Shown: in pieces, positions 49,578 to 54,481 of the stretch
How positions within the stretch are numbered: position 1 is the stretch's first letter
Layout: each line of letters starts with the position of its first letter
From: an uncultured Gammaproteobacteria bacterium
GTDB taxonomy: Bacteria > Pseudomonadota > Gammaproteobacteria > UBA9214
Reading direction: 5' to 3'
NCBI GenBank assembly: GCA_963763115.1
Contig: CAVXNM010000031.1
Coordinates: 8,865-72,864 of the forward strand
DNA: 64,000 nt
Translations under genes and position numbers: made by a program
The notes under the pieces: generated by a model
Told to the model about the DNA's origin: nothing
The model's database searches: none
The model's input: only the letters and a program-made list of their open reading frames with translations

Positions 49578-51344
49578 ATGAAAGACTTGCCACCGAGTGT
49601 TGAGCGCAGGGATTCCCAGCGCCTTGACCGGCGCAAAACACCGGCGCTTGCCGGTCATCTCGAATTGCTGGCCAAGATGAGCGGTCATCTGGCGGTCACG
49701 CTCAACATCGAGGAAACCATCGAGAAGGCGCTCGAACTGATTACCAAGTATGTTAATGCCGAGGCGGGATCTCTCTTTCTTCTCGAAGACAACGGGCTGC
49801 GTCTGACCTGCAAGGCCAGCGTCGGGCCGGTCAATATTCAAGGAATTTCCTTGAAATCCAGTGAAGGTATCGTAGGACAGTGCGTCACCAATAACACCAG
49901 CCGCATGGTGCGCGATGTCAGTTCCGACTCGAACTTTGCCCATTCTGTCGATGAATCTACCGGTTTCCACACCCGCTCCATCCTGTGCGCCCCCATGAGC
50001 ACCCAGAACATCCGGCTCGGAGCTATCGAACTCATCAATAAAAAAGATGGGGACGGCCTGTTTTCAGAGACGGATCTTATGATGCTGCAGACGCTGACGG
50101 CGGCCGCCGCGCTTGCCGTGCGGAATGCACACATGGCGGAAGTTCTCGTAGAGCAGGAACGCGTCAACCGCGAAATCGAGCTTGCCATCGAAATGCAGCG
50201 CAGCCTGCTGCCCGCCGCACGACCGGCGCCGTTCCCGGTGTGCGGCATCAACCTGCCGGCTCATGAGGTGTCGGGGGATTTCTACGACTTCTTCGTACTG
50301 GACGACGGACGCATCTATTTCAGCCTGGGGGACGTTTCCGGAAAGGGCATGGATGCGGCGCTGCTCATGTCGAAGGCGGCAAGCCTGTTCCGCTGCGTGG
50401 GCAAAACCCTGCATGATCCAGGCGCACTGATGGCGACCATCAACAGAGAGCTGTGCGAAACGGCCATACACGGCATGTTCGTCACCATGGTCTGCGGTAT
50501 CCTGGACACTGCCACCGGCAGCGTGCGACTGGCCAATGCCGGGCATGAGCCGCCCCTGATACACCGAACTGATGGCAGCTACATCCAGGTACCCGCCAGC
50601 GCCCCGCCTCTTGGTATCATGCCGCTGGACGTCGGGCCGGAGGGCATCCGGGAGGAGCTATTCACGCTCGATGGTGGCACACTCTACATTTTTACGGATG
50701 GTGTCACCGAAGGCAGGTTAACAACCGGACAGCGACTTGACGTGCAGGGGATCAAGGCGATCATCACCCGACATGCCGGAGATCCCGCCGCCACACGCAT
50801 TCAAGCCGTCGTCTCGATACTGGACAACAGCGGGGAACAACGACATGACGACATCACTATAGTGGCAGTGGAGGACCCGACTCGCCAGATCATGAGAAAC
50901 GACGCCGCCTGCTGCGCCGAGCCGCTGATCAGTCTGACCTTCCCGGCCCGCGCCGAGGAACTGCATCCGGTACGGGAGATGGTGCGCGAAACCTGCGAGA
51001 AATGCGGCTGTCCACCCGCCCTGGCGCAGGACCTCGTCATCGCCATCGGGGAGGCCTGTCAGAATGTGGTCCGGCACGCCTACAAGGACATCGATGACGG
51101 GGAGGCCACCCTGGATATTCTGTGCCGGGACGGCATGCTGGAATTCTGCCTTCTGGATAAGGCCCCGCCGGTTGACCGGGAAAAGGTCAGGCCCGTATGG
51201 CCGAAGGAGGTACACCCCGGCGGGCTGGGCGTGTGCCTGATTCACAACATCATGGACAGGGTGGAATATCTCCCCGCGCCTTCCGGCCAGGGGAATCTGC
51301 TGCGCATGGTAAAATTTTTCAAGAGACACAAAGATGAAGCATGA
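49578..51344 (+). CDS. GAF + PP2C/SpoIIE phosphatase + RsbW-like Ser kinase (HATPase_c_2) fusion
   Basis: GAF (VDESTGFHTRSILCAP, ELINK); PP2C (GDFYD, GDVSGKG, FTDGVTE, DDIT); kinase (EACQNVVRHAY, GGLGVCLI). Confidence 0.92.
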   Translation: MKDLPPSVERRDSQRLDRRKTPALAGHLELLAKMSGHLAVTLNIEETIEKALELITKYVNAEAGSLFLLEDNGLRLTCKASVGPVNIQGISLKSSEGIVGQCVTNNTSRMVRDVSSDSNFAHSVDESTGFHTRSILCAPMSTQNIRLGAIELINKKDGDGLFSETDLMMLQTLTAAAALAVRNAHMAEVLVEQERVNREIELAIEMQRSLLPAARPAPFPVCGINLPAHEVSGDFYDFFVLDDGRIYFSLGDVSGKGMDAALLMSKAASLFRCVGKTLHDPGALMATINRELCETAIHGMFVTMVCGILDTATGSVRLANAGHEPPLIHRTDGSYIQVPASAPPLGIMPLDVGPEGIREELFTLDGGTLYIFTDGVTEGRLTTGQRLDVQGIKAIITRHAGDPAATRIQAVVSILDNSGEQRHDDITIVAVEDPTRQIMRNDAACCAEPLISLTFPARAEELHPVREMVRETCEKCGCPPALAQDLVIAIGEACQNVVRHAYKDIDDGEATLDILCRDGMLEFCLLDKAPPVDREKVRPVWPKEVHPGGLGVCLIHNIMDRVEYLPAPSGQGNLLRMVKFFKRHKDEA

Positions 51345-51660
51345 GGTAATCAAAAAACAGGGAGCATCTATCGTCGTTCTGAAAGGCGATGTCGACCTTG
51401 AGAGCTCACCGGCCGCCCGCGAAGTCCTGCTGAAAAGCGTCGACGTGGCCGGCAAGGTACTGGTCGATCTCTCCAGCGTGACCTACATCGACAGTTCCGG
51501 CGTCGCCTCACTGGTCGAGGCGCTGCAGGCGGCGAAACGCAATGGCGGCAGATTTGCCCTGGTTGCGGCCAGCGATCCGACCCGGCGGGTGCTGGAGCTG
51601 GCGCGTCTTGACAAGGTCTTCACCATGTACACAACCGTTGATGAAGGAATGAAGGCATGA
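51334..51660 (+). CDS. STAS anti-sigma-factor antagonist (RsbV/SpoIIAA-like)
   Basis: LKGDVD, VDLSSVTYIDSSGVASLV with phosphorylatable Ser; overlaps upstream gene. Confidence 0.93.
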   Translation: MKHEVIKKQGASIVVLKGDVDLESSPAAREVLLKSVDVAGKVLVDLSSVTYIDSSGVASLVEALQAAKRNGGRFALVAASDPTRRVLELARLDKVFTMYTTVDEGMKA

Positions 51661-51755
51661 TCGCCGGATTCCTGTGCGCTGGCGCTGGACATCAGGTCAG
51701 TCGGCATCCACCGGCATACTGACTACCTCAAGGGCACCCAGGACATCTCCTGTTC

Positions 51756-53060: not shown

Positions 53061-53828
53061 ATGAAAAAACTGCTCATCCTGCTGCTGGTGCTGGCCTACC
53101 CTCCGGGCGGTGTCTGCCTGGACCTGGGTTCCGGTGCCGTTGAGGCAACCAAGACGGATGCGGCCGCGGACACGCAGCAAGATGAAGAGGAGATGTTTCC
53201 GTTTGATGACGAGGAGGAGCAGTACCACGTATCCGACCCCATCGAGCCCGTGAATCGCGGCATCTTCTGGTTTAACGACAAACTGTATTTTTATCTCATC
53301 AAACCGGTTGCCCGGGGCTACCGGTGGGCCGTGCCCGAACCCTGGCGGGTAGCCGTACAGAATGTCTTTTCCAACCTTGCATCGCCAGTCCGCATTATCA
53401 ATGCCGGCCTCCAGGGTAAATTCCCGGACGCCGGTAATGAGATTACCCGTTTCTTCGTCAACACGACTCTCGGAATCGGCGGCCTGTTCGATACGGCCAG
53501 GGATAATTTCGACATAAGAAAACACGACGAAGATACAGGCCAGACGCTTGGACACTACGGCATCGGACCGGGTTTCTATCTGGTGCTGCCGATCCTGGGA
53601 CCCTCGGATGTCAGGGATGCGATCGGCACCTTTGCCGATGCACGTATGAATCTGGTCTACTACCTGTTCGACGGCTGGACCTACTATGAGGTCAAGGGCT
53701 ATGAGAAGATCAATGACCTGTCGCTGGACAAGGATACCTATGAGAGCATCAAGAAAGAGGCACTGGATCCCTATCTGTTCGTACGGGATGCCTACATGCA
53801 GTACCGCGCTAACAAGGTCAGGAACTGA
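53061..53828 (+). CDS. mlaA: MlaA/VacJ family protein
   Basis: DPIEPVNR, FFVNTTLGIGGLFD, EDTGQTLG, YLVLPILGPS.VRD, DPYLFVRDAYMQ. Confidence 0.95.
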   Translation: MKKLLILLLVLAYPPGGVCLDLGSGAVEATKTDAAADTQQDEEEMFPFDDEEEQYHVSDPIEPVNRGIFWFNDKLYFYLIKPVARGYRWAVPEPWRVAVQNVFSNLASPVRIINAGLQGKFPDAGNEITRFFVNTTLGIGGLFDTARDNFDIRKHDEDTGQTLGHYGIGPGFYLVLPILGPSDVRDAIGTFADARMNLVYYLFDGWTYYEVKGYEKINDLSLDKDTYESIKKEALDPYLFVRDAYMQYRANKVRN

Positions 53829-53878
53829 CCATGGGGACGGCATTACCTGAATCCGGAATATGCCGTAAGGAGAGTGTG

Positions 53879-54481
53879 ATGGTGTTGAAGCGGTTTGTTG
53901 CGCCGATACTGTTCGGTTTTATGATGTTCCTGGCAAACACGGCATTCACCGCCGGCAACGCCACCGATTCGGTACACATGTCGGTCGATGCCATCATCGG
54001 CATACTCAAGGATGCCGATCTGGATAAACCGGCAAAACGCGAGAAGCTACGGGTGGTGATTTCCGAGCGTTTTGATTTCCACGCCATGTCCCAGCGCACC
54101 CTCGCCACCAACTGGAGAAAGGCATCAAAGGAGGAGCAGCAACGGTTCGTTGAACTGTTTGCCGAACTCATTCAGAACACCTATATCGGCCGGGTAGAGG
54201 CCTACACCAATGAAGAGGTGAAATATCCCGGTGAGAAGATTACAAATGATCGCGCCGTGGTGGATACCCTGATCGTTACCAGCAACGCGGAAATACCTGT
54301 CACTTACAAGCTCTACCTGAAGGATGGCCGGTGGCTGGTCTATGACGTCAACATCGAGGGCGTGAGTCTGATCAGCAACTACCGCAATTCGTACCAGGAG
54401 ATCGTAAAGCGGGAAGGCTTCGCAGGCCTGCTGGCCAAGATGGAAGAAAAAGTAAAAGAACTCGCCAACGCGCCATCCTAG
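53879..54481 (+). CDS. mlaC: MlaC/Ttg2D periplasmic lipid shuttle
   Basis: FDFHAMSQRTL, WLVYDVNIEGVSLISNYRN. Confidence 0.94.
   Translation: MVLKRFVAPILFGFMMFLANTAFTAGNATDSVHMSVDAIIGILKDADLDKPAKREKLRVVISERFDFHAMSQRTLATNWRKASKEEQQRFVELFAELIQNTYIGRVEAYTNEEVKYPGEKITNDRAVVDTLIVTSNAEIPVTYKLYLKDGRWLVYDVNIEGVSLISNYRNSYQEIVKREGFAGLLAKMEEKVKELANAPS

Follow-up and report, generated by a model that had tools for sequence, protein, structure and literature searches.

What does a partner-switching module control when it stands at the head of a lipid-transport operon and has no sigma factor for a neighbor? This question is raised by a 64,000-nucleotide (nt) stretch of DNA (the window) on contig C31 of an assembly (4.0 Mb, 88% complete) from an uncultured gammaproteobacterium, whose nearest public relatives are uncultured Gammaproteobacteria known as metagenome-assembled genomes. 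In the window, a phosphatase-kinase gene and a STAS gene that resemble a partner-switching system (PSS) are followed by the genes of an Mla transporter. We favor, at a probability of about 0.58, a partner-switching module with an ABC transporter as its output, in which the STAS protein would alternate between its kinase and the ATPase MlaF and so gate lipid transport.

The module opens with a 588 amino acid (aa) fusion protein (window 49578–51344, + strand; Pfam and NCBIfam matches) that joins a GAF domain (aa 43–181; 49704–50120, +; 51 bits), a SpoIIE-type PP2C phosphatase domain (aa 242–432; 50301–50873, +; 136 bits), and an RsbW/SpoIIAB-type serine kinase domain (aa 455–579; 50940–51314, +; HATPase_c_2, 89 bits across the full profile). 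The end of the fusion gene and the start of the STAS gene overlap by 11 nt (ATGAAGCATGA). The STAS gene (51334–51660, +) encodes a single-domain protein of 108 aa (PF01740, 75.6 bits), with a predicted phospho-acceptor, Ser54 (codon 51493–51495, +), in the motif D53-S54-S55-G56. Downstream on the same strand (51756–54481) are genes for an MlaE permease of the ‘E-D’ lineage (263 aa; 51756–52547; PF02405, 248 bits; TIGR00056, 232 bits), a short, E. coli-like MCE subunit MlaD (159 aa; 52561–53040; TIGR04430, 159 bits), the outer-membrane lipoprotein MlaA (261 aa; 53043–53828; PF04333, 237 bits), and the periplasmic lipid carrier MlaC (216 aa; 53831–54481; PF05494, 159 bits). MlaE and MlaD exceed the curated cut-offs of TIGR00056 (212 bits) and TIGR04430 (135 bits), and the window's MlaE, MlaA, and MlaC fall short of the equivalog models specific to E. 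coli. The gene for the MlaF-like ABC ATPase (287 aa; 54478–55341, − strand) is convergent with mlaC and overlaps it by 4 nt at its 3′ end. An earlier note on this DNA had described a single GAF-PP2C-kinase polypeptide, its overlap with a STAS gene carrying DSSG, and mlaE-D-A-C in the same direction; all three features are present as described. The note mentions neither the convergent mlaF nor a second Mla operon in the genome (see below).

The STAS and mlaE genes are separated by 95 nt (51661–51755, +), a spacer in which no terminator-like site was found and whose predicted RNA fold is no better than that of shuffled sequences (z = 0.27). The sequence of this spacer varies between genera. Its length after the STAS stop codon has a median of ∼11 nt across 151 loci and ranges from 15 to 96 nt in the window's family.

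The fusion protein has intact motifs for two opposed activities. The PP2C and kinase part has its best Protein Data Bank (PDB) match in the fused Mycobacterium tuberculosis protein Rv1364c (3KE6), and the kinase matches RsbW (6M36) and SpoIIAB. Among 126 distinct sequences, the PP2C metal motifs GDFxD (D234, D237), DVSGKG (D252), DGxxE (D374, E378), and DDxT (D424, D425) are 98–100% retained. The N-box of the kinase (E492, N496, H500), the G1 aspartate D527, and the G2 box G548-G549-L550-G551 are likewise ∼100% conserved in 141 sequences. The window thus carries one hallmark of partner switching, a GHKL serine kinase and a PP2C phosphatase beside a STAS protein with intact motifs (the G1 box reads D-K-A-P-P).

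A second hallmark, a co-encoded sigma factor, is absent from the window's locus. Five sigma-70-family genes were matched in the genome, none of them on the window's contig, and the same five used as queries against 170 loci gave one weak match, 5.5 kb from the STAS gene. These queries detect one another in the genome, a positive control that indicates the test works. The claim that no sigma factor lies near the module is therefore borne out, and a linked sigma factor as the output is ruled out by the contig and 170-locus searches.

The STAS protein has the features of a kinase substrate. It passes the TIGR00377 anti-sigma factor antagonist model (81 bits against a cut-off of 53.45), and its AlphaFold2 model, with a mean predicted confidence (pLDDT) of 93.4, superimposes on RsbV, SpoIIAA, and TM1442 with template-modeling (TM) scores of 0.85–0.90. 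The D53-S54-S55-G56 motif is invariant, with serine at the acceptor position in 146/146 distinct sequences, and in alignments S54 corresponds to Ser59, a phosphorylatable residue of TM1442, and also, with no gap, to Thr52 of E. coli MlaB. MlaB is itself a STAS protein and the established partner of MlaF in E. coli (PMC7367683). Thr52 sits in the middle of the MlaF-MlaB interface, the T52E substitution weakens MlaF binding, and phosphorylation of Thr52 has been called an ‘intriguing possibility’ with no kinase known (Kolich et al. 2020, PMC7367683). The window's STAS gene is upstream of the mla genes; in 15 canonical operons the MlaB-like STAS gene is at the 3′ end. By every criterion the STAS protein is predicted to be a bona fide kinase substrate, and it is MlaB-like only in its context and its acceptor position.

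The presumed target carries both sequence hallmarks of MlaF, namely a signature reading LSGGM instead of LSGGQ and a C-terminal extension of ∼25 aa (PMC7367683). The window protein scores 215 bits with the MlaF equivalog model NF008809, below its cut-off of 441, and MlaF is still the best of its 189 NCBIfam matches; its best PDB matches are the MlaF proteins of A. baumannii, P. aeruginosa, and E. coli. It reads ELSGGM, and LSGGM occurs in 148/148 members of its subfamily. Its extension of 26 aa (aa 262–287; 54481–54558, −) contains the motif Y274-L275-x-R277-L278-T279 and is conserved among 137 distinct tails: R262 in 100%, Y274 in 99%, L275 in 91%, R277 in 99%, and L278 in 100%. In E. coli MlaF, the terminal helix of the extension places Tyr261, Leu265, and Leu266 in the MlaF-MlaB groove (PMC7367683). 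The conserved extension of the window's MlaF would fit a STAS protein docked on MlaF.

The GAF domain and the genes encoded with the module in some related loci suggest a cyclic-nucleotide input. The best PDB matches of the GAF domain are GAF domains that bind cyclic nucleotides, first 5W10 (6e-17) and then PDE2A and PDE5. It has an NKFDE-like motif, N154-K155-x6-F162-x3-D166-L, from which the final E is absent and in which N154, F162, and D166 never vary among 104 distinct members. In ∼11 gammaproteobacterial loci, a PSS-MlaEFD operon carries at its 3′ end a same-strand gene for a CHASE2-class III nucleotide (adenylate/guanylate) cyclase. Loci with a CHASE2 cyclase are L022 (13834–16086), L034, L037, L044, L047, L055, L059, L072, L075, L078, L082, and L171 (5705–7939); the cyclase start overlaps the preceding gene in L022, and the cyclase directly follows STAS in L171. 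Five alphaproteobacterial loci (L103, L106, L108, L115, L159) have the gene of a more distant cyclase just upstream of that for GAF-PP2C; in all, ∼16 related loci encode a cyclase. No nucleotide cyclase is encoded in the window, and the two distant cyclases of its genome are on other contigs. The sensor is exchangeable: some loci carry domains other than GAF, such as HDOD in L170.

From these features we propose the following cycle. Like MlaB in E. coli, unphosphorylated STAS would dock on MlaF at its helical subdomain, where the Y-L-x-R-L helix of MlaF would complete the site. The docked STAS would stabilize or activate the MlaF2E2D6 complex or, if its effect has the opposite sign, inhibit it. 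The kinase domain would phosphorylate Ser54, at the position equivalent to Thr52 at the center of the MlaF interface, releasing STAS and lowering transport. The PP2C domain would reverse this phosphorylation when the GAF domain binds its ligand, possibly a cyclic nucleotide. 

Surveys from three starting points show that the module and mla genes travel together. In the window's own family, 37 sampled genomes were surveyed and orthologous loci were fetched from four genera. All 19 of these loci retain the order fusion gene-STAS-mlaE-D-(A)-C with a convergent mlaF, and the fusion proteins are 62–90% identical across the family. The fusion protein and the window-type MlaE paralog are both found in 21/37 family genomes and both missing from 14/37. 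Of the remainder, one has its STAS gene cut by a contig end, and one (G006) encodes RsbW-STAS-mlaF-mlaE-mlaD-mlaA-mlaC on a single strand.

Beyond the family, a scan seeded with the STAS protein, at one genome per species, recovered at least 591 loci, of which the best 80 were analyzed. In 80/80 of these, STAS is directly followed by mlaE; the kinase is present in 77 and PP2C in 74. The labels of these loci include Gammaproteobacteria, Rhodospirillales, Hyphomicrobiales, ‘Deltaproteobacteria’, Myxococcota, Nitrospirales, Marinimicrobia, and Spirochaetales, and related layouts number well over 100 loci in several phyla. A single one of the 80 comes from an isolate, Telmatospirillum sp. J64-1 (NZ_SBHN01000007), a cultured bacterium with the common layout. 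The common layout is (GAF-)PP2C, kinase, STAS, mlaE, mlaF, and long mlaD, often with a PqiC-like lipoprotein gene after it; phosphatase and kinase are fused in 75/133 loci and split in 58. The window-type layout, seen in the window's family and in a single further family (L039), is a derived variant of the common MlaE-MlaF-long MlaD core.

The third survey was independent of STAS and used the window's MlaF subfamily (E <= 1e-80) as a probe in a class-wide sample of 400 genomes. The subfamily occurs in 74/400 genomes and 57/321 genera. Among 60 neighborhoods selected in this way, STAS is directly upstream on the same strand in 50, with the kinase in 48 and PP2C in 44. Of the other ten, five are second copies, and the first copy in those genomes does have the module; in four cases the module lies on a different contig; one genome has none. 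The STAS family co-occurs with this MlaF subfamily in 54/55 genomes. Adjacency by chance or confined to one lineage is ruled out by the 19/19, 50/60, and 80/80 counts, and the non-conserved linkage that would have told against the proposal of the earlier note is not what these surveys found. Together with the co-occurrence, the lack of a sigma factor, the correspondence of Ser54 to Thr52, and the MlaF extension, the linkage supports that proposal, namely that a phosphorylatable STAS protein may serve the Mla ATPase as MlaB does.

Sequence comparisons within the transporter show which components the module follows. The window's MlaF shares 61–80% identity with MlaF proteins from PSS-linked operons of other families, against 40% with the canonical MlaF of its own genome. 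MlaE shows the reverse, with 31–35% identity to MlaE of the common PSS-MlaEFD operons and 45% to its own canonical MlaE. Trees were built from 15 canonical, 17 third-paralog (see below), 22 window-type, and 22 PSS-EFD-type sequences, with branch support from the Shimodaira-Hasegawa-like approximate likelihood ratio test (SH-aLRT). The MlaE tree resolves four clean groups and joins the window type to the canonical type (SH-aLRT 100). In the tree of MlaF, sequences of the window type and the PSS-EFD type intermingle and are split from the rest (SH-aLRT 96.8). It appears robust from these data that one tight MlaF/STAS lineage accompanies two deeply divergent MlaE/MlaD lineages, and a hybrid origin is suggested, in which the PSS-type MlaF and STAS would have been kept while MlaE and MlaD were exchanged. 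Two loci, L031 and L035, contain both permease sets and a single mlaF. The constant companions of STAS are the kinase and MlaF, not MlaE.

The window's Mla system is not the only one in its genome. Contig C63 (L001: 5487–8767) holds a complete canonical mlaF-mlaE-mlaD-mlaC-STAS operon, whose STAS gene is an MlaB-like open reading frame (ORF) of 180 aa; the system in the window is therefore paralogous. The E. coli-type models score higher on C63 than in the window, at 393 versus 215 bits for MlaF and 417 versus 272 bits for MlaE. The absence of a separate mlaB, as asserted in the earlier note, thus holds for the locus, and no second STAS was found on the window's contig, but it fails for the genome. 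This canonical MlaB belongs to a complete operon of its own, which also encodes a distant MlaF. The C63 operon has no mlaA of its own, and the mlaA in the window is the only one detected by a whole-genome tblastn search of the 88%-complete assembly, so the canonical MlaFEDCB may depend on an outer-membrane partner from the PSS-linked operon. The best reading is that the window's module heads a derived, shuttle-type Mla set with a short MlaD, MlaA, and MlaC, which operates beside a separate canonical MlaFEDCB.

Relatives of the source genome carry a third Mla-like operon in which STAS and permease are one protein. It was observed in four genomes of the window's genus (L028:3223–8658 and L174–L176) and in others (L177–L189), and the window's own assembly yielded no copy of it. 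Its order is STAS-MlaE, MlaF, long MlaD, and a PqiC-like lipoprotein. The N-terminal extension of this MlaE, 110–130 aa long, is a STAS domain as judged by a 16-sequence profile, which matches TM1442 (6.5e-6) and MlaB (1.5e-5) in the PDB and aligns with the window's STAS family in hhalign at 85% probability (E = 6.5e-6). Compared alone with the STAS profile, the L028 MlaE N-terminus gives E = 0.08, and the relationship is clear only with the 16-sequence profile. The ‘lDtAg’ of the extension aligns with ‘vDtGg’ of MlaB, and D-T or D-S occupies the MlaB Thr52 position in 14/16 sequences. In the window's genus, a gene for a phosphatase with a periplasmic sensor (SBP_bac_3-PP2C) lies directly upstream of this operon, and no kinase was seen there. 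The natural fusion indicates that STAS domains are physically tied to MlaE/F complexes in this lineage.

Several observations weigh against the alternation of STAS between kinase and MlaF. The entire case is built from gene context and sequence. The usual glycines are absent from the G1 box of the kinase. The STAS protein reaches 28.1 bits with the MlaB model NF033618 (mlaB_1), over aa 35–95 only and below the cut-off of 90; its PDB profile matches to MlaB have E values of ∼6e-4 over a partial stretch, and its predicted fold has a TM score of 0.64 to MlaB, at rank 37. Membership of STAS in the true MlaB family is ruled out by this family cut-off and fold ranking. Approximately unbiased (AU) tests do not reject alternative MlaE and MlaF topologies (p 0.098 and 0.39); these topologies are left standing, so the hybrid origin is suggested and not established. 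The canonical MlaB of the genome could in principle serve both ATPases. The 95-nt spacer and the placement of mlaF on the opposite strand imply looser coupling than in the common operon. Finally, the module lies apart from any mla gene in three genomes (L170–L172; G093, G094, G292), which makes another target conceivable.

The first alternative to consider is that the kinase domain, rather than STAS, binds and inhibits MlaF or MlaFE in the way of an anti-sigma factor, and that unphosphorylated STAS removes the kinase without itself contacting the transporter. Such an arrangement is the canonical one for partner switches, and it agrees with a STAS fold that most resembles kinase-bound RsbV and SpoIIAA and with the presence of the kinase beside STAS in 77/80 and 48/50 loci. 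Nevertheless, we consider it unlikely. The established partner of MlaF is a STAS protein, MlaB, and in 56% of loci the kinase is joined to a large GAF-PP2C part. STAS is the most constant element of the module and persists with no kinase or PP2C nearby in L057 and L146 (full upstream flank; ∼5 kb). Moreover, STAS-MlaE fusions exist in the paralog, and no kinase-Mla fusion was seen.

Alternation of STAS between kinase and MlaF also has to be weighed against an action at a distance, in which the module would control transcription or another cytoplasmic target elsewhere (e.g., RpoS or FliA) and the mla genes would be neighbors or part of its regulon. Fused phosphatase-kinase partner switches are also found in Pseudomonas (HsbR/HsbA) and Shewanella (CrsR/CrsA), where together with a STAS protein they act on such non-adjacent targets, so there is precedent within the Gammaproteobacteria. 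Four or five sigma-70-family factors are encoded elsewhere in the window's genome, and the module stands alone in G093, G094, and G292. Yet all three of these genomes still encode the window's MlaF subfamily. A distant target would also leave unaccounted for the linkage in 80/80 and 50/60 loci of several phyla at a spacing of ∼11 nt, the 54/55 co-occurrence with one specific MlaF subfamily, and the near-complete lack of linked sigma factor genes across 170 loci (one weak match), and we rate it a rather poor prospect. In the genome of G093, the unlinked module (L170:5532–9782) consists of an HDOD-PP2C-kinase fusion of 713 aa and STAS, accompanied by an ORF of 169 aa with no known function and a BLUF blue-light sensor protein.

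A last alternative, that STAS is a constitutive structural substitute for MlaB while the kinase and phosphatase act elsewhere or are vestigial and phosphorylation gates nothing, is very improbable: E. coli MlaB does function with no known kinase, MlaB T52A is non-functional yet still binds MlaF (PMC7367683), so that Thr52 may matter beyond phosphorylation, and the G1 box is atypical, but the catalytic motifs are 98–100% conserved in >120 distinct sequences across phyla, the acceptor is strictly serine (146/146) within the kinase-recognition motif DSSG, and the phosphatase, kinase, and STAS genes stay together even away from mla.

The wider proposal is that such operons form a widespread class of partner switches in several phyla, in which an RsbV-type STAS protein alternates between kinase and MlaF as a post-translational switch for Mla/MCE transport, with many members set by a co-encoded CHASE2 cyclase and a cyclic-nucleotide-type GAF domain on the phosphatase and with the window as a graft onto the E. 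coli-like MlaA/MlaC/short-MlaD shuttle. In this scheme, a signal would pass from the envelope to a cyclic nucleotide, the phosphatase, STAS, and finally MlaF. To this broader claim we give even odds. The window has features in common with several known systems. The MlaFEDB complexes of E. coli, A. baumannii, and P. aeruginosa (6XGY, 6XBD, 7CH8, 7D06; PMC7367683, PMC5016091) share with it MlaE, an MCE-type MlaD, an LSGGM-bearing MlaF with a C-terminal extension, and a small single-domain STAS companion with Ser54 at the position of MlaB Thr52; MlaA and MlaC are also present. In contrast to those complexes, the window's STAS protein is of the RsbV/SpoIIAA type and encoded in front of the operon, its MlaF belongs to a separate subfamily, and, unlike in any described Mla system, the STAS protein comes with a dedicated kinase and phosphatase. 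The Veillonella parvula MlaEFD ‘ancestral core’ (PMC10665443) resembles the common PSS operon of mlaE, mlaF, and long mlaD, which has no MlaA or MlaC, whereas the window itself has a short MlaD, MlaA, and MlaC. A phylogenomic survey of Mla systems counted any syntenic STAS protein as MlaB and did not mention kinases or phosphatases (PMC10665443).

On the side of the switch, the window shares with Bacillus RsbU/RsbV/RsbW and SpoIIE/SpoIIAA/SpoIIAB (6M36, 1TH8) the same three activities, the D-S-x-G acceptor, the folds, and the adjacency of the genes. It differs from them in having no linked sigma factor, an ABC transporter as a neighbor, and phosphatase and kinase in one chain. That last feature, PP2C and an RsbW-like kinase in one polypeptide with a separate or fused STAS domain, is shared with Rv1364c (3KE6) and with SypE/SypA of Vibrio fischeri (PMC10120452, PMC4517449), and some fused phosphatase-kinase switches have outputs other than the classical sigma B/F. 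Unlike in these fused switches, the window's sensor is a GAF domain of the cyclic-nucleotide type instead of REC or PAS, and the presumed output is a lipid ABC transporter, which is not known to have been described for any of them. Searches of the full-text literature (subscription-only papers lay outside this scope) turned up no paper joining partner switching, RsbW, or a kinase to Mla, in agreement with the view of the earlier note that such a mechanism was not known to be described.

These operons bear on two standing questions, the regulation of Mla activity and the purpose of MlaB. They provide a natural set of kinase, phosphatase, and substrate that is genetically tied to MlaF, so the proposal lends itself to a direct in vitro test that takes four or five soluble proteins. 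The variant in the window, with MlaA, MlaC, and a short MlaD, is nearest to the E. coli pathway and hence the easiest to relate to existing assays. If STAS does alternate between its kinase and MlaF, partner switching would extend from transcription to the direct control of a membrane transporter and would offer a handle on when bacteria switch retrograde or anterograde lipid traffic. Thousands of genes annotated as ‘anti-sigma factor antagonist’ or ‘anti-sigma regulatory factor’ would then be unrelated to sigma factors.

Other features of the window are peripheral to the module. Divergently upstream of the fusion gene (47297–49506, −) are genes for a TIGR03790-family protein (372 aa, 250 bits, with no Pfam match) and a UspE-type protein with tandem Usp domains; both neighbors are kept within the genus only. 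Downstream of mlaF, MazG is retained family-wide. No tRNA genes were found in the window, and its sole Rfam match is a cspA thermoregulator RNA at 615–1007 (+; RF01766, 90.8 bits against a gathering score of 78). The G+C content is 0.56–0.62 across most of the window and rises to 0.66–0.68 at 28001–36000.

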